From positions 434,001 to 498,000 of the forward strand of contig AP026167.1 in the NCBI GenBank assembly GCA_030295235.1: a DNA stretch of 64,000 nucleotides, given 5' to 3'. The notes beneath the pieces were generated by a model. The model was not told where the DNA came from. It did no database searches and saw only the letters and a list, made by a program, of their open reading frames with translations. Source of the stretch: Fistulifera solaris. Lineage: Eukaryota. Shown here piece by piece: positions 16,976 through 25,400 of the stretch (the first letter of the stretch is position 1; the number at the start of each line of letters is the position of its first letter). The position numbers were made by a program, and so were the translations under genes.

Positions 16976-18615
16976 TTATGAAATGTCATGATCAATATCC
17001 CTCCAACTTGTGGGAAACTCTCTGGCATAAAGGGATCCAAACAATGGCCAGTATCCACGCATGCGGTGCTTTTTCTCAATGGGAGCATAGTAGTAGGATG
17101 AGACGATTCCGTGTTTGTATCCTTTTACTTTGTTCTTGTCCGCATGATAACCTCGGATGCGATTGATGTATCCGGTGAAAGTGCTAAACCAACAACCAAA
17201 GAACACTCTTGATTGACTTGCCACTAGCTGATCGACCATCCCATAGTACATAGTATCCATTCCGTCAAGTGAATGCACAAAGTCATCCAAGAAAACAATG
17301 TCAAATTGCTTTTGAAGATCCGCGAAGAACGTCTTGTTGCGCTCATCGGTGGCTACATAGACGACCGCTCCGTGGCGGATTTCTGGTTGCGACGCGTTGT
17401 ATATATCGCTGGCGGATATACGTGTTTTCTGACATTGAAATTCTCCTCGACGAATGTGAAACGCATCAAACTCCCGACGGCCGGTGCGCTTAAAGGCATG
17501 ATCCCGCACCGCCTGCACCACACGCGCCGCCGCACACTGGATATGATCGGCATAGCGAAGGTGATCCCGAACCAAGCGCTTGTAAAACAGATCATTGTGC
17601 CAGTTTTCGAAAAAGAGGAATGCATAAAAGTGGGTCAGTAGACGTCCGCTCAATTTGGGTTTGCCGTGAAAATGTAAAAGTCGTTGTTGCTGCAACGTAG
17701 CGTTGTAGACACAAAGTTGTTCACGTCCAGCGCGCATTTCACTCAAACGATCGGTGGAAGGAGCACCGACAGAAACGGGATGACCGAAGTATTGTTCTGG
17801 CTTGGGAAAGGCTTGATTCTCCAGCCTCATGGAAAACCAAGACTCCAGTTCTGACACACTCGACTCGTCGTCAGAAAACACGGCAATACACTTCTCTGGA
17901 TTCCACGAGGGCATCGTTGCCACACTCCGTATCCAGGGTTGAAACTCGGTAGCAATTTCGTACGACATGCCGTCCCAATGCGTGCGATTGTGGGGTGGCC
18001 GTAATAAAGGTCTCTCGCGACGCAAAAATTCTTCCGTGGAAATGATTTCCAACCCAGCTTGTTCACGGCTTATGCGCGAGAGTGGCAGGAAAGTGTCCAA
18101 TGTGATAGTATTCTTGCCTTTTTGGCTTTCTAGCAAATAATATTCCTGTGCCGGGGGCTAGAGAGAGAAGTGAGAATAACGAATTGAAGAGTCGACAACA
18201 AGCAATTATATGTCTTCAAACAGACCATCACCAAAGTTCGTCCCATAGCATGCGCCATAACAATGACTGTTTCCAGATTCATTCGAACATTATTCCAGCC
18301 TCCTTTATCGGGCTCGAATGTCAAGTATTTGGTCGTCTTGCTGTTGTAAAATGGTGATGTGTAGGCGGCATCTGTCGGTATATCCCTCCAATAGATCATT
18401 CCGGACGCATCTTCGGGCCCACCATACGACAAACAATTCAATTCTGCCAAAGGACTATGCTCATCGATCACAATATGGTTTTCGAGGGTCCATTGAGGTT
18501 CCGGTAGAAGGAACGGAAGCCCTATCGGAATGAAACATCCGAGAAAAAGCAAAATAAAAACAAGAGCGATGACCGCCATAGAACCAAGCGGTTTCCGTCG
18601 ACGCTGCTTTCCCAT
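16976..18615 (-). CDS. O-fucosyltransferase family, paralogue 3 (single intron near 18158-18225)
   Basis: TFEPDKGGWNNVRMNLETVIVMAHAMGRTLVM|PPAQEYYLL, HFYAFLFFENW, FHIRRGEFQ, VYVATDERNK, DQLVASQS, REFPTSWRD. Confidence 0.87.
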
Positions 18616-19046
18616 TTCAAATGAAACAGTAAACTACTGCTTATTACTTCGATACGTCATTGTAGTCATTACAATTTGATTCATTGCTGTTGTTACTGTT
18701 TGGAAAAGCTGTGATTATTGCGAAAAAAAATAAAAATAGCACCGAACCATTTTTCGGGTCAAAGATGCTACGCTTCGAAAAGTTTATCAGTATGCGACCC
18801 GGATGTTTTAGTACCTTTTTCCTTCAGAGTAATAAGTCTTACCAGGTATCGTGTTTCAGAACGGCGTTTCAAATCACGAGTGACATACTTCAAGCTTCAC
18901 CTTTTCAAAAATTTGCTCGACCATCATGCGAGCACAGACGAAATGCTATAAATACGAAATAATTGACAATTGACAATTGAAAACAACTATATTCTGCAAA
19001 AGGCTTTTAATTCGTCGAATTGATTGGTGGCGTCTATCCGGAAAGA

Positions 19047-22000
19047 ATGAATCTTAACACAATACTCCTGCTTTTTTTTTCTTGTCATTATTCCGATGCC
19101 TTTGCGCCTCGTCTGACACGAGGCATACACACTACACTGAGGGAAACGAGTACTAAACCATGGTTCTTTGCCGATAAGCAAGTCGTGAAGAAAGAAGAAG
19201 AACAAATCGATGCAGCCACAGAAACAAGAATATTGGGTTCACAAGAACTGCTCATGGCACCACGTCAATACAGTTTGAGTGATGAAACATTCCCCGCTAT
19301 GAATCATGTCGCGTGTGCCATTTTATCCGCTACTCCGGATTCCAACGTCATTCGACAAGCACTGAACTATGTTATGCAAACACACCCTTTGCTTAGAGCG
19401 AAAATTATTGGGGACGGAGAACCAGAGAAACGCATCGATCTCTTCCAAATGGTGCGAAAGGTACGTCTCTACAATTGTGTCAATCCTCGTTGAAAGACAC
19501 TCGAGTCGTCTCTATAATCTCATTCGTTTCTGGTAGGGCGATCCAAATCCGATGCAATTTCAAGTAGATTCTTCGCTCACCGCGGATGCAGTTCTACATA
19601 TCATCGATACGGATCAGTTGGAAACAAGCTGGCAAACTGCTTTTGCTCGGAACTTAGATGACGGGACGTGGTGTGATGTGACGGTAGGGCCTTTGTGGAA
19701 GCTAGAATTGCATCGAGACAAGAAAACGGGAAAATGCGCCCTCTTGTTTGCGTTCAATCATGCCATTTCCGATCAAAGTAGTGTCAACCGGCTGGTCGAC
19801 CAGATTTTGCGTAAAGTAGTCGTATTGGAGAAGGGCGAAACACTGCCCCTGCAGCCGCAACGTATACCCGTGGCATTGGAAGATTCCGTCTTGGGTATGC
19901 AACAGAGATGGTCGGATGTAACAACAAATGGGGTGTCGGTCGACACTATCCAATACGTTGCGAGTAAGGCGGCGGAGGGATTGCGCAATCCGGTCATTCT
20001 CCCGGAATCGTCGTCATCGAACAGCGGGAATCCACTGGGTGCACTCACGATCATTTCCGGACAAACTGCTGGAGGAATGGATACCGAACAACGAAAATCG
20101 ACGGTACAATTTCGGTCGTTGTCTCCGAGTCCTACATCAGCGTTGTTATCGCAATGCCGCGCCAAGAATGTATCTGTCACCAATCTTTTGACAGCAGCCG
20201 TTACGTTGACCGCAACTGATTTCATCGGAGACGGAACTGACACGAGTAGTGAGCGCAACTACAAAATATTACAGTCCATGGATATGCGTCGTTTTGGACA
20301 GCAACTTGATAAGGGCGAATCGGTGGCGTGTATGGCAGGTTCCATGGATTTGATGCACGGGCCTTTACCGGATCGTTCCGGAGAACGAGTTAGAACGGGT
20401 GAAGAAACCGAACTAGTATGGAAATTGGCCATGGAAGGAAAAGAGCAGACAGCACAGTTCATAGACAAGGGCGGACCCGAGCAAGCGGTTCGAGTGTTCG
20501 ATTTTGCCATGTCCGTTGCAGACTTGAACAATTTAGTTTACTTGACAGCTCAATCCAAAGACACAAAAGGCAGAGCATACAGTGCTGGAATAGCTAACAT
20601 TGGTGTATTCGAAAGCCAATCGGCATTTGGTACCAAAGCGGAGACTTTAAAGAGTAAACACGGGAGATATCAAGTGGAAAATATGTTCTTTGCGACCTCG
20701 CATGTACAATCGGGATGCCTGTATCAAGTATCGTGTATGACGGTAGATGGGAAATTGGAGTTGACATTCCACCCTGTTTCTCCTATTGTAAGCGAAGAGA
20801 CAAACCAGAAATTTGCCGATACATTTATGGAACTTCTCGAAGTTATTGCTGGCACGAAAGGTCCGGTGTCCATCGACTCCGCCAGCAGCAAGATCCCGAT
20901 TCTCCCTAAGAATATTCTCACTAGAGTTGCTGCGGTTATCGGAATCGGTTCCGTCTTGAGTCACTCAGCTGCTTGGGTTGATTTCTTCCGCTCCGTGTTG
21001 GAAATGAAAGCCAACATTGCCGATCCTGCTGACTTTTGGGCCGCTATCAACTTCTGGATCTTCTTCGCCGTCGGCCACCCTCTTCTACAACCAATTTTGT
21101 ATCTGAGCGATCTTCTTCATGGCAGTCCAGGTCCCCTGGTGGGAAACCTAGTTCCCTTTTCTTTCTTGGCGGGGAATGCTGTCGTTCTCTTCGCCATTAT
21201 GAAATTCAAAGATGTAAGTTGGATTTGTACGCTCATAAAGCATTCGACATCTCCATGGAGTTCAACTAACCCCGCGATCCCGCAGCTACGAAACGCGTTA
21301 AACGTTGCCGCACTGGCCGCGTTCTTCTCCTACGTGGGTGCTGGTTTAGATGGAACTGCGGGACTTGGAGACTTTAACCTTGCCTTAGATGACAACTACA
21401 AAGGCCAGATCGTGAAAGGATGCCCCGCATACGAAGACGTTCGACAGCCCAGTATGGACAACTTTGATCTAAACAAATATCAAGGCCTGTGGTACGAGCA
21501 GAAGTTTCACGATTGGACACAATTTAAAGAGGTCTACGATACCTCTCTCGATATCAGGGTGAGTCGATTGACCAAGTACTAACGCAAATTGTCTTGAACT
21601 GGTGCTTGAAGGAGTTACTCACACACTTGAAATTCTCAGTTAACGGAAGGAGGCAAGGGATGGGTGGATGACTTTGGCGTGAAGGGACCCGCTCCCGACG
21701 CTGCACCACTCTTCCTGGGACAAGAGTCCCGTGGCCAATGGCGCGCATTACTTTTTATTTGGACGCGTCGATGAGCGCGATCCTCCGGGAATTTTACGAG
21801 AAAAAGGATTTGGTGTTGAATTTCCCAATTACATTGTGGATGTTAAGAAAGATCCTAAAACGGGTGAATACACGGAATCGATACAATTTCAGTGCCTGGA
21901 ACGAGGCGGAGTTCGGGTTTTTGAAGGTATCAATTTCATGTCGCGCAACAAGGTTATGACCGACGAAGAATTGATGGCTATGCATGCTCGAGCTGAAAAA

Positions 22001-22171
22001 GCGGGCATGTATCCCTACGGAGCGAGTCCTGAGCAGATGCATCGCGTAGCACAGAGACCGGAGAATGCTCCGGCCATTGACAATAGTTGGCAGGCCATGT
22101 GGAGAGCGATTGGCCTAGACAAATTGCTAGAGTTGCTTACCGAGTCTATTGAGGATGGCGGACGAGAATAA
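19047..22171 (+). CDS. Plastid-targeted fusion: CoA-dependent (condensation/alcohol acetyltransferase-like, HxxxD) acyltransferase + TM segments + lipocalin domain
   Basis: Presequence MNLNTILLLFFSCHYSDA-FAP. Acyltransferase motifs HPLLRAKI, GPLWKLEL and FNHAISDQSS. Several hydrophobic helices, then lipocalin motif FDLNKYQGLWYE. Introns 19461-19536, 21214-21285 and 21559-21639. One-base frameshift near 21711. Confidence 0.78.
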
Positions 22172-22483
22172 AGTAATTTTACGAGTAGGGTAGCGTGATC
22201 GAACGTGTTTTCATCAAGCTACATAAGTTCGTTATTGCTGCATCTCGTCCGTATTGGCTTGTGTGACCCAACCTTAGGCAGGATGTTTGATTCTGAACTT
22301 GAACCTTATAGGTGCATGTATCGTCCGAACAACATGAAATAATAATAATACGGAGTAATAAAAATGAAACGTTCATCGCATCCGCATCAATCATTCTCTC
22401 TTTTGTTTCCTGTGCATGATTTCTAAAACCTGCTGTAGAACTAAACTAGAAGGAAACAAGTGAATGGTTCTCGGAAGGAAACT

Positions 22484-25400
22484 ATGGCAGCAGAAAGCGA
22501 TGAGGATAACAATAACAATCGACACAGCCAGCCTTTTCTGTTTGCCGAACAGGAGCAAGTCTTTGCAAATATTGAACTATTGCGATGCAGCCAAGACGAT
22601 TTGTCGGAAAAGGCACAAGAAACCCGCCTTATATTCGACAAATATCTTGAGTGTCCTACACTGCTGGACCCCTCCTTACCGAAACTAGTGGAATGCTTGA
22701 GTCGAGGGTATCTTCATCGTCCGCCCAACGAAGCAAACGGTGCCTCCATGTTATCCATCTTGTATTCGCTTTCTAAAGTAAGGGGGTGGAAACACGTCGT
22801 GCGCTTTTTACCCGCACATAGTGAACACATTCTTATCGTGTGGGAAGCCTTGCAAACGTCGTCGTCTTGGGAATCGATTTATATCCTGTGGCATTGGATG
22901 GCCGTATTAAGTCTCGTGCCGTTCGATGTACAAGTCATGGTGGCGGAAGAACAAACGTGGTTGTCCCAAATGTTCGACTCGGCCCGTCAACAGTGTCACG
23001 ATGCGGGCCCGACGCGCGAGGCTTCCGCAATTTGTGTGGCTGCGTGGTTGTCGCGTGCGGATGTCTTTGCGATGCAGTGGTCCGTGTACGAAGCCTATGT
23101 GCAGCAAACTATAACTCAATATTCAAGTAAAAGCCAGACGGATGTGTTATTTCCACTCTTGGGAGCTCTAAAAGTGCTTAACACAATGCTCAAAACCTGT
23201 CGCACCGATCGGGAACAGCTGGTGCAACACTTTTTGCCCTTTTGGGATCCATTGTGGAAAATTGGGGAAAAACAGAAAGATCTACTAGTGACACACCAAT
23301 TGATCAAGTGGTGGGCACGCATGGCGGCAGCGCATTTGCCGCCGCGGATTGCACCGTGGCGGTATCAACGGGGGAAGCGTCTCTTATTCGTATTGTCTGA
23401 AACTACCAGCGAGACTCTTAACGACGAAAGTATAGAAAAGGAAAGGGAAACATTATGGAAGGTTCCAGATTTAGTGGAAGATGTCATGGGTCGCATTCTT
23501 TTGCGTTGCGAAATTCTTCTACCGTTGTTCGGTGGTCGGCGGCCAAAGGAGTGGGTCGTCTCACGGAACGATTGCCGGCTCTTTGCGCAGATGATGTGGT
23601 GGACGCCTTGTTAGAGACAGTGGAAGAAGAATCAGATGATGATAAGGTTTGGCACGGAACTTGTTTGGCAGTAGCAGAATTGGCGCGTCGTGGGTTACTG
23701 TTGCCCCATCGACTCGAGGAAGTTGTACCATTTGTCATAAGGGCGATCCATTTTGATGCGAGTCCGCCGTCATCGTCATCCACAGCAACTTCTAGTGTAG
23801 GAGCTCATGTCCGCGATGCTGCTTGTTATACGTACTGGGCATTTGGAAGGGCCTTTCACCCAAGTGTATTACGACCTTTCTTACGGGAGCTCAATCACGC
23901 GGCTGTTGTCACGAGCTTGCTGGACCGTGAGGTCAATTGTCGGCGAGCCGCTAGTGCTGCATTTCAAGAAGTTGCGGGTCGTCAGAAAGGAAATGTGCCC
24001 CACGGGATCGACATTTTGACAACGGCGGATTTTTTTCTCTTTAGGGAATCGGACAAACTCGTATACAAAGATCGCCTGCTCTGTTGCAACTTACGTCGAA
24101 TACAGAAAACCCATCATCAACCATCTCTACCGAGAAAAGCTCTTCCACTGGGATATTTCCATCCGGACACTGGCAGCTAATACTCTTGGTCGAATTGTGC
24201 CACTGGATGCAAGCTATTTCTGCTCGATCATCTTGCCAGATCTACTGGAGAATTCCCTTGATATGAAAAATTTGCACGTGCGTCATGGTGCTGTGGTTGG
24301 AGTTGCGGAAATAACATTTGCTCTAGCGACAAACGGTAGACTCTCCCAAATCTCTAATAAACACATGACTGTGCTAAAACGCTTAGTTGCGAACATTGAA
24401 AAGAAAAGGCTGTATCGAGGACGCGGAGGAGAAATTATGCGGTCAGCTATTTGCCAGTTGGTGAAACGCATTTCACAGTCTCGAATCGACCTATCAGTGA
24501 AAGAGCAAGTTCAGTTGCTGGATTCTGTGGATGCCTGCATCCCTCACCCGTCCGAAAGTATTCAAAACGATGCCTGCCAAGCTCTCCATCAACTACTGAT
24601 GGCTTATTTCCCAGTTAGCGAACATGGGCCCTCCGACAGGCTACAGAATCGTGTGGTCGGCAAATTTACTGATACGTGTTCATCAAGCGAAAATCCAGCG
24701 GCTACCAGAGGCTATGCTCTTGCACTGGGTTATTTACCAGCGAAACTCGTCGCTCCCTCTGATGCTGTCTTAAGCTGTGTCATTTCTTGTCTTATTGAGT
24801 CTTCCAAGCACACGAGCCTTGTTGGAAGTGAAGGCGACGCCGAAACTCGAAGAAATGCTCTTTTCTCTCTTCGTCGGATCGCGACAAGGGCATTGACTGC
24901 TCGCGACACGTCAGAAACTTCATATCCTGTTGTCTTTATAAGCGTAGACTTGGTATTTCAAGTTTTGGATGCCCTTTATCTTGCTTTGAATGATTACAAA
25001 ACAGATCGCAGAGGCGATGTGGGTTCCTGGTGCCGCATGGCTGCGATCGACGGGATGGTCGAAATACTATTGCTTTCCGGCGATAACGCTGAGCTTGCCG
25101 GTCGTTTATCACATGGCCATGCTACAAGATTAGTTGCGGCCATTTTGAAGCAGCTTGGTGAAAAATTGGATGTTGTTCGTAAGTGCGCTGGTAACGGTTT
25201 AGCGAGAATTCTCTTGCATGAACCGCATATCACTGGAATTGACTTCAGAAGCGAACTTCAAAATGCTTTAGGGGTGGCAGGAACGCCTCCAAATTGGGCC
25301 GATTCCTCGCTGGCATTCGACCGTTTGAAGGATGTGATTTCACTACAAGACGTTCCTGACCTTTACGTCGATAACGTTCTTTTCGGACTTATAGTGAGTG

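Follow-up and report, generated by a model that had tools for sequence, protein, structure and literature searches.

Much of marine photosynthesis depends on the pigments fucoxanthin and peridinin, and acetylation had been the last step of their synthesis to lack an assigned enzyme. The family responsible, plastid xanthophyll acetyltransferase (XACT), was described in April 2026 (Cao et al., PNAS 2026, PMC13080032). Disruption of the Phaeodactylum tricornutum gene (PtXACT) in mutant S32 abolishes fucoxanthin and causes fucoxanthinol to build up, and the cDNA rescues the mutant. Recombinant PtXACT uses acetyl-CoA almost exclusively and acts only on allenic xanthophylls. Acetyl-CoA-dependent acetylation of allenic xanthophylls was obtained with recombinant XACT from five lineages, and the function was also shown in N. 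oceanica. As described there, XACT orthologues are restricted to lineages that have acetylated carotenoids, and a lipocalin domain, assigned to SUPERFAMILY SSF50814, is present in the enzymes of Diatomista and dinoflagellates and absent from those of haptophytes and Chrysista (PMC13080032). The subject here is a gene at positions 19047-22171 on the forward strand of a 64,000-nucleotide stretch of Fistulifera solaris (GCA_030295235.1, contig AP026167.1, positions 434,001 to 498,000), referred to as the window. The gene belongs to the XACT family, and with a probability of about 95% it is one of two homeologous XACT copies in the allodiploid F. solaris. The identity of the enzyme is therefore already known, and the remaining question is the helix-lipocalin unit attached to it.

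The identification rests on several lines of evidence. The protein of the window is A0A1Z5JTI7, which is aligned in SI Fig. S3 of PMC13080032. In Dataset S3 of that paper, the XACT orthologue listed for F. solaris is A0A1Z5JXW6 (P0124), and A0A1Z5JTI7, entered at 64.1% identity, is treated as redundant to it. The product of exon 2 matches PtXACT (P0005) at 61% identity over 100% coverage (E 4e-267). In PMC13080032, an XACT was defined by a BLAST E value below 1e-20 to the acetyltransferase domain and by placement within the algal clade, and the window protein falls within this definition. P0005 is indeed PtXACT: when HPLLHC is counted from MMLQPD, L153 and H154 come to lie at their published positions, its residues agree with the row in SI Fig. 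S3, and its variant P0011 is 1020 amino acids long, the same as Phatr3_J36932 in Dataset S3. The window protein shares with PtXACT a putative presequence, the AATase domain, the hydrophobic segment and the lipocalin, is 61-65% identical to it over the full length, and keeps the HPLL and HxxxD motifs. It differs from PtXACT in being one of two homeologues and in carrying a probable one-nucleotide assembly error. The C-terminal lipocalin, found by structure modelling with AlphaFold2 (AF2) and by fold matches, gives it the Diatomista type of XACT architecture. By eye, the N-terminus shows a hydrophobic stretch followed by SDA-FAP, and the A/S-F junction recurs across homologues; for PtXACT, ASAFind gave 'Plastid, high confidence' with GHA-FAP (PMC13080032).

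A working scheme follows from this orthology. A putative bipartite presequence would take the protein into the plastid. The histidine of the HxxxD motif would then serve the transfer of acetyl from acetyl-CoA to the 3-hydroxyl of allenic late intermediates such as fucoxanthinol, phaneroxanthinol and allenoxanthin. This acetylation would complete fucoxanthin, as has been shown for the Phaeodactylum orthologue and is likely by orthology in F. solaris. The C-terminal unit, in which hydrophobic helices are modelled to pack on the lipocalin barrel, most likely holds the protein to the membrane and binds a hydrophobic ligand. The earlier note, which was made from the letters of the window, had proposed a plastid-targeted xanthophyll acyltransferase providing the O-acetyl group of fucoxanthin, and this is the activity demonstrated for the orthologue Phatr3_J36932 (PMC13080032). 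The motifs it had named (HPLLRA, GPLWKLEL, FNHAISD and FDLNKYQGLWYE) are all read in the window where it placed them, and so is the DA-FAP junction, as HYSDA-FAPR in exon 1. That the correct candidate was reached from raw sequence alone validates this kind of reading.

The acetyltransferase domain, of the AATase/condensation fold, covers 19227-20877 (residues ~61-585) and is split by intron 1. An AF2 model of the full-length protein, built with a 30-sequence diatom alignment, had a mean predicted local distance difference test score (pLDDT) of 65.7 with poor helices and barrel; it is usable only for this domain, where pLDDT is high over most of residues 60-580. With Foldseek, the modelled domain matched AzeD (8s6l, E 1.3e-19, TMt 0.83), the TRI3 15-O-acetyltransferase (3fp0, E 1.7e-16), nonribosomal peptide synthetase (NRPS) C domains and PapA5 (1q9j). 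The domain is thus, as modelled, a two-lobed HxxxD fold of the condensation/TRI3/PapA5 type, which bears out the acyltransferase fold that the earlier note had wished to see confirmed. A profile of 30 homologues run against PDB sequences found a weak PapA5-like match only (8s6l, E 0.0073). H213 and D217 of the HxxxD motif HAISD (19759-19773; H codon 19759-61, D codon 19771-73) are invariant in all 30 diatom sequences. The HPLL motif is similarly constrained, with H113, P114 and L116 invariant in 30/30 and L115 conserved in at least 90%. The inactive -3 bp allele of PtXACT (loss of L153, H154N) falls in this motif (PMC13080032).

Two groups of described enzymes are closest to this domain. Like the yeast-type alcohol acetyltransferases (PF07247; PTHR28037 according to PMC13080032), it has the HxxxD motif and a Pfam match, and PtXACT shows the acetyl-CoA specificity. 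Unlike them, to which similarity is very low, the algal proteins are plastid targeted and have carotenoid acceptors, and those of Diatomista and dinoflagellates carry a lipocalin. With TRI3 (3fp0), PapA5 (1q9j), AzeD (8s6l) and NRPS C domains, the window domain shares the two-lobed CAT-like fold (Foldseek E 1e-19 to 1e-15, probability 1.00). These proteins are only 11-18% identical to it, however, have other acceptors, and possess neither a lipocalin nor a hydrophobic helical segment.

The fusion of this acyltransferase to a lipocalin is genuine. It had been read from the DNA as real and not as an artefact of a gene model, and it stands because both domains are present in homologues of about 1000 amino acids, some of them MMETSP transcripts labelled 'complete'. 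The Phaeodactylum XACT cDNA was also cloned at full length (PMC13080032, SI text). In the window, the C-terminal part comprises a hydrophobic helical segment (20914-21351, residues ~598-719, spanning intron 2) and a lipocalin barrel (21412-22072, residues ~740-932, eight strands and a flanking helix, split by intron 3). The lipocalin signature FDLNKYQGLWYE lies at 21463-21498 in exon 2b. Kyte-Doolittle peaks fall at residues 598-617 (1.45), 641-659 (1.39), 675-693 (1.81) and 700-718 (1.38), so that a single peak of the four (675-693) exceeds 1.6. The hydrophobic segment holds the invariant block NFW.FFA..H..L.PIL. The word 'transmembrane' does not appear in the main text of PMC13080032; the one place where it occurs is Dataset S1, as a DeepLoc label.

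Since the helices and barrel were poor in the full-length model, the C-terminal 374 residues were refolded separately by AF2 with a diverse alignment of 39 sequences. The resulting model has a mean pLDDT of 92.0 and a predicted template modelling score of 0.89, and it shows five helices, an eight-stranded barrel and C-terminal helices. The five helices (model numbering; adding 590 gives protein numbering) are 8-22, 25-41, 45-77, 89-104 and 106-129, with pLDDT of ~90-95. Foldseek matched the barrel to ApoD (2hzq, E 5.1e-7, TMt 0.80) and also to Blc, sandercyanin and AtTIL. VIA-align gave Z scores of 17.2 for ApoD, 17.0 for Arabidopsis TIL, 16.8 each for E. coli Blc and beta-crustacyanin, and 15.4 for the VDE lipocalin domain (3cqn). 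The lipocalin recognized in the sequence at the C-terminus is thereby recovered in the modelled structure. The nearest Atlas clusters were chloroplastic lipocalins and VDE, with scores of 0.79-0.84 (VDE 0.79), which serve as leads only. For the hydrophobic segment, the Atlas search gave no match, and a wide PDB search gave no outstanding fold match (best Z 6.5, DUF1311), which does not imply that the fold is new.

Sequence profiles do not find this lipocalin. No Pfam lipocalin family (PF00061/PF08212) matched the window pieces at E <= 1 or the free-standing relatives of the module at E <= 0.01, and no lipocalin was matched when the 30-homologue profile was run against PDB sequences. It is therefore the modelled fold that places the module among the lipocalins. 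Pfam VDE (PF07137) likewise matched neither the window pieces nor the free-standing relatives. VDE and VDL proteins are marked by an N-terminal domain rich in Cys and a C-terminal domain rich in Glu. Membership of the VDE/VDL family was considered and rejected: there is no PF07137 match, and only the likeness in fold (Z 15.4) and the Atlas lead of 0.79 point that way. The window barrel is eight-stranded with a GxW motif, like those of ApoD, Blc, TIL, crustacyanin and VDE. Unlike these, it has an invariant H-D-x-T-Q block after the GxWYE strand, and it is preceded by the five-helix hydrophobic segment, which is predicted to pack against the barrel. Ten residues are invariant in the 39 diverse modules: C743, P744, F757, G764, W766, H772, D773, T775, Q776 and T783 (P0121 numbering).

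Conservation is higher in the helix-lipocalin module than in the catalytic domain. Mean pairwise identity is 0.57 in the acetyltransferase domain (61-585) and 0.72 in the hydrophobic core (641-725), both in 30 diatom sequences, and it reaches 0.82 in the lipocalin and tail (726-964) in 27 sequences. The module also occurs apart from XACT. With a hidden Markov model (HMM) of the module, HMMER searched 1.84 billion cluster representatives and returned 276 proteins at E <= 0.001, of which 200 reached 1e-10 and 86 reached 1e-30. These include free-standing proteins of ~410-520 amino acids that begin with Met, have an N-terminus resembling a signal peptide and span the module from end to end. Among 488 collected proteins, 487 match the module HMM (198 fused, 105 free-standing with helices and barrel, 16 barrel only and 168 unclear); the set is redundant and was gathered with the module itself, so these class counts are not frequencies. 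About one quarter of the module matches carry organism names. Diatoms and bolidophytes (the latter including Triparma) have the module as part of XACT. In dinoflagellate XACT, from the sequence cluster that includes Breviolum, the barrel follows the acetyltransferase domain directly with no helices, and dinoflagellates such as Yihiella also have proteins with the barrel only.

Free-standing modules are found in three settings. The haptophyte Prymnesium parvum has KAL1522140.1, which falls in the clade of P0134, a protein 59% identical to the F. solaris module. Euglena gracilis has EG_transcript_5513, a protein of 647 amino acids with a long presequence and no acetyltransferase domain. Diatoms have a separate free-standing paralogue clade with the motif KYQGRWYWHKVHDWTQF (P0139, P0140 and P0300-P0310, including P0306 of Seminavis robusta and P0310 of Attheya). 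No Pfam family covers this paralogue, and no mention of it was found in the main text of PMC13080032 or by searches of its supplement. A haptophyte thus carries the module on its own, while the XACT of haptophytes is described as having no lipocalin (PMC13080032). The presence of the module alone in this haptophyte and in Euglena sharpens the question of what the unit does. In Seminavis robusta, the XACT listed in Dataset S3 of PMC13080032 has 599 amino acids and no lipocalin, and this gene model may simply be truncated. As a separate observation, this species does encode a free-standing module protein of the paralogue type (P0306).

A module tree was obtained by a quick IQ-TREE search with 52 rows, and its deep branches are unsettled. 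The dinoflagellate barrels stand apart from all helix-bearing modules (SH-aLRT 99). The Prymnesium protein groups with 11 free-standing and two further unclassed proteins in a clade of 14 rows (SH-aLRT 91), and the fused modules of diatoms and bolidophytes are sister to the free-standing paralogues of diatoms (SH-aLRT 100). The Euglena module has no resolved position.

What the module contributes to XACT has been addressed experimentally in Phaeodactylum. For rescue of S32, Domain 1 (amino acids 1-640) suffices, and it also has in vitro activity with essentially the same substrate preference; Domain 2 (641-1020) alone does not rescue the mutant (PMC13080032). The module HMM match begins at residue 648 of PtXACT, so Domain 2 corresponds to the helices and the barrel. 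The suggestion in the earlier note that the barrel is coupled to catalysis is not upheld by this result, as the acetyltransferase domain works by itself. The authors of PMC13080032 called for the ligand and the regulatory role of the lipocalin domain to be determined, and the helix-lipocalin unit defined here is a concrete target for that question.

The simplest answer is that the module is a passive membrane anchor or an appendage that presents the substrate, with no function of its own. This explanation is a serious one, with a probability that we put a little short of even. The rescue of pigmentation by Domain 1 with its substrate preference kept, the failure of Domain 2 and the existence of XACT with no module in haptophytes and Chrysista (PMC13080032) all favor it. 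An idle appendage does not sit easily, on the other hand, with a module more conserved than the catalytic domain to which it is attached (0.82 vs 0.57), nor with the existence of free-standing, signal-peptide-bearing proteins and a separate diatom paralogue clade. The genetic background of the rescue is also relevant. S32 carries mutations in both alleles, a +1 change in one and a -3 bp change in the other (PMC13080032). The -3 bp allele keeps the frame and should still encode a dead acetyltransferase together with an intact helix-lipocalin unit. Rescue of S32 by Domain 1 is therefore no test of the need for the unit. Neither the conservation contrast nor the free-standing occurrence of the module nor this caveat of the in-frame allele was found in the main text or supplements of PMC13080032.

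A bolder proposal is that the helix-lipocalin unit is an autonomous, strongly constrained plastid protein with a second job in xanthophyll metabolism. In its boldest form, the unit would be, or would feed, the dehydratase that converts neoxanthin to diadinoxanthin. We consider this proposal improbable. The dehydration of neoxanthin to diadinoxanthin is ascribed to an unknown dehydratase in a 2025 review (PMC11857680), and all named module carriers found belong to diadinoxanthin-containing lineages. No brown alga or eustigmatophyte is named among the module matches with organism names, which is not evidence of absence. Euglena, which contains diadinoxanthin, is missing from the lineages for which the review (PMC11857680) lists acetylated carotenoids. 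The proposal would have a parallel in VDE, VDL1 and VDL2, enzymes with a lipocalin fold that already act in the xanthophyll pathway (for the role of the VDL enzymes, PMC11857680). It is compatible with the 'dispensable' outcome in S32, because the in-frame allele should still encode the unit. Two observations count against the dehydratase. PtXACT was inactive on all-trans-neoxanthin in vitro (PMC13080032), and the dinoflagellate fusion with no helices argues that the barrel and the acetyltransferase lie on the same side of the membrane. The phrase 'diadinoxanthin synthase' was not found in the literature searched.

Several points weigh against the identification of the gene as a working XACT copy. 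The assays and the genetics belong to orthologues in other species, and the function in F. solaris is assigned by orthology. The AATase match (PF07247) of the exon-2 product is borderline (E 6.3e-5), its score of 22.2 bits being barely at the gathering cutoff of 22. A second AATase paralogue, more distant (36-38% identity) and with no lipocalin, exists in some diatoms (PMC13080032, Dataset S3), and membership of the family alone would therefore not fix the substrate. Among the contigs of public runs, no RNA contig lies over intron 2 and no single RNA contig spans both domains of the gene. Exon 3 read literally shifts frame near 21711 and reaches a stop at codon 833, inside the barrel, and one of the two data sets that bear on this (run X1) is possibly the source data of the assembly and thus not fully independent.

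It is very unlikely that the gene encodes an HxxxD acyltransferase of the same superfamily with another substrate (a lipid of the thylakoid, an alcohol of the wax-ester or sterol type, or a xanthophyll esterified with long chains). The weak and mixed Pfam matches (AATase, with Condensation and PapA_C both weak), the diverse acceptors of the structural neighbors (peptides, trichothecenes and phthiocerol) and the second AATase paralogue of diatoms leave room for it, but the window protein is the lipocalin-bearing copy, is 61-65% identical to PtXACT over the full length and is listed as an XACT orthologue in PMC13080032, where PtXACT is strictly specific for acetyl-CoA and acts only on allenic xanthophylls. 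The thylakoid-lipid acyltransferase that the earlier note had offered as an alternative is thus not needed.

Exons 1, 2a and 2b translate to residues 1-788 of GAX17327.1 letter for letter. When one base (21711, 21712 or 21713) is dropped, the translation gives the full 964 amino acids of GAX17327.1 exactly, and beyond 21711-21713 the correct frame stays open and identical to that protein. In run X1, the base at 21711 is left out in 40/40 of the covering depth. Two X1 contigs lie over this position with one gap each; one is otherwise identical to the window, and the other differs in 23/347 letters. The base is also left out in run X3, in 10.1/10.1 of the covering depth. Because the surplus base is lacking in the covering depth of both runs, the frameshift in exon 3 is most likely a sequencing or assembly error and not a truncated allele.

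The same evidence bears on the possibility that this copy is a decaying homeologue: the +1 frameshift at 21711-21713 would be genuine and cut the lipocalin short, leaving P0124 as the copy with full function. The literal stop at codon 833 and the presence of two homeologous copies in the organism speak for such decay, and a truncation could be tolerated because the acetyltransferase domain alone suffices for fucoxanthin (PMC13080032). With the base missing from all the covering depth in X1 (40/40) and X3, a deposited protein that reads through and a downstream frame that is open and identical to P0121, this explanation is very unlikely.

An intact XACT gene is the preferred reading, and the data fit a partner copy. 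P0121 is GAX17327.1 (UniRef A0A1Z5JTI7, 'FisN_10Lh192'), the F. solaris protein of 964 amino acids, and P0124 is GAX18601.1 (A0A1Z5JXW6, 'FisN_10Hh192'), which is also from F. solaris and 95% identical to P0121. Over 19300-22000, run X1 contains, next to the version identical to the window, a second version of the gene with ~6-8% divergent DNA (28/369, 44/584 and 23/347 letters), as would be expected from P0121 and P0124. F. solaris is allodiploid. From the Lh and Hh locus tags and the divergent second version in X1, P0121 and P0124 are read as two homeologues. Run X3, a wetland metagenome, has contigs that differ by ~7-10% over 19312-22346 (e.g. 51/743 and 33/469 letters), and a close relative of F. 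solaris therefore occurs in that wetland.

The gene model is based on splice signals and homologues, and the exon translations were compared with GAX17327.1 by script. It has four exons on the forward strand (numbered 1, 2a, 2b and 3), which encode a putative plastid presequence, the HxxxD acyltransferase, the hydrophobic helices and the lipocalin barrel. Exon 1 (19047-19460, 138 codons) equals residues 1-138 of GAX17327.1 exactly. It begins with the ATG at 19047 and encodes a signal-peptide-like N-terminus with the HYSDA-FAPR junction, then a transit-like region; the acetyltransferase domain starts within this exon, and the HPLLRA motif (19383-19400) is part of it. Intron 1 (19461-19536, 76 nucleotides, GTACGT...TAG) is seen removed in a contig of run X4 with a joint 19458>19535 (GT..AG, cut +2), and a loose contig end in run X2 carries the end of exon 1. 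Exon 2a (19537-21213) has 559 codons for residues 139-697. Exon 2b (21286-21558, 91 codons) encodes residues 698-788, which cover the final helix and the first part of the lipocalin. Intron 3 (21559-21639, 81 nucleotides, GTGAGT...CAG) lies at a site where homologues read LDI(K/R)-LT(E/D)GG across the junction. Exon 3 (21640-22171) encodes the remaining lipocalin barrel and the C-terminal helices, contains the surplus base at 21711-21713 and ends with the stop TAA at 22169-22171.

Exons 2a and 2b are separated by intron 2 (21214-21285, 72 nucleotides, GTAAGT...CTAAC...CCGCAG), and this affects how the open frame is to be read. An uninterrupted open reading frame at 19552-21582 had been reported for this region. 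The frame is indeed open, from stop to stop at 19537-21582 (forward strand, 681 codons, first ATG at 19552), and contains GPLWKLEL, FNHAISD, four hydrophobic stretches and FDLNKYQGLWYE. It is not one exon, however, and it is open throughout because intron 2 happens to be in frame. Intron 2 has no stop, and if it were retained, two hydrophobic helices would be separated by 24 additional residues. Its sequence is missing from P0121, P0124 and all full-length homologues. A 571-amino-acid model that matches the homeologue P0124 (P0001) runs into the corresponding intron 2 and terminates there.

The genes on either side have no evident tie to pigment synthesis. Upstream, at 18130-18633 on the reverse strand, lies an open reading frame resembling GDP-fucose protein O-fucosyltransferase (Pfam E 2.4e-5, under the cutoff). 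Downstream, at 22445-23614 on the forward strand, lies an ARM-repeat open reading frame resembling tubulin-specific chaperone D (E 2e-6).

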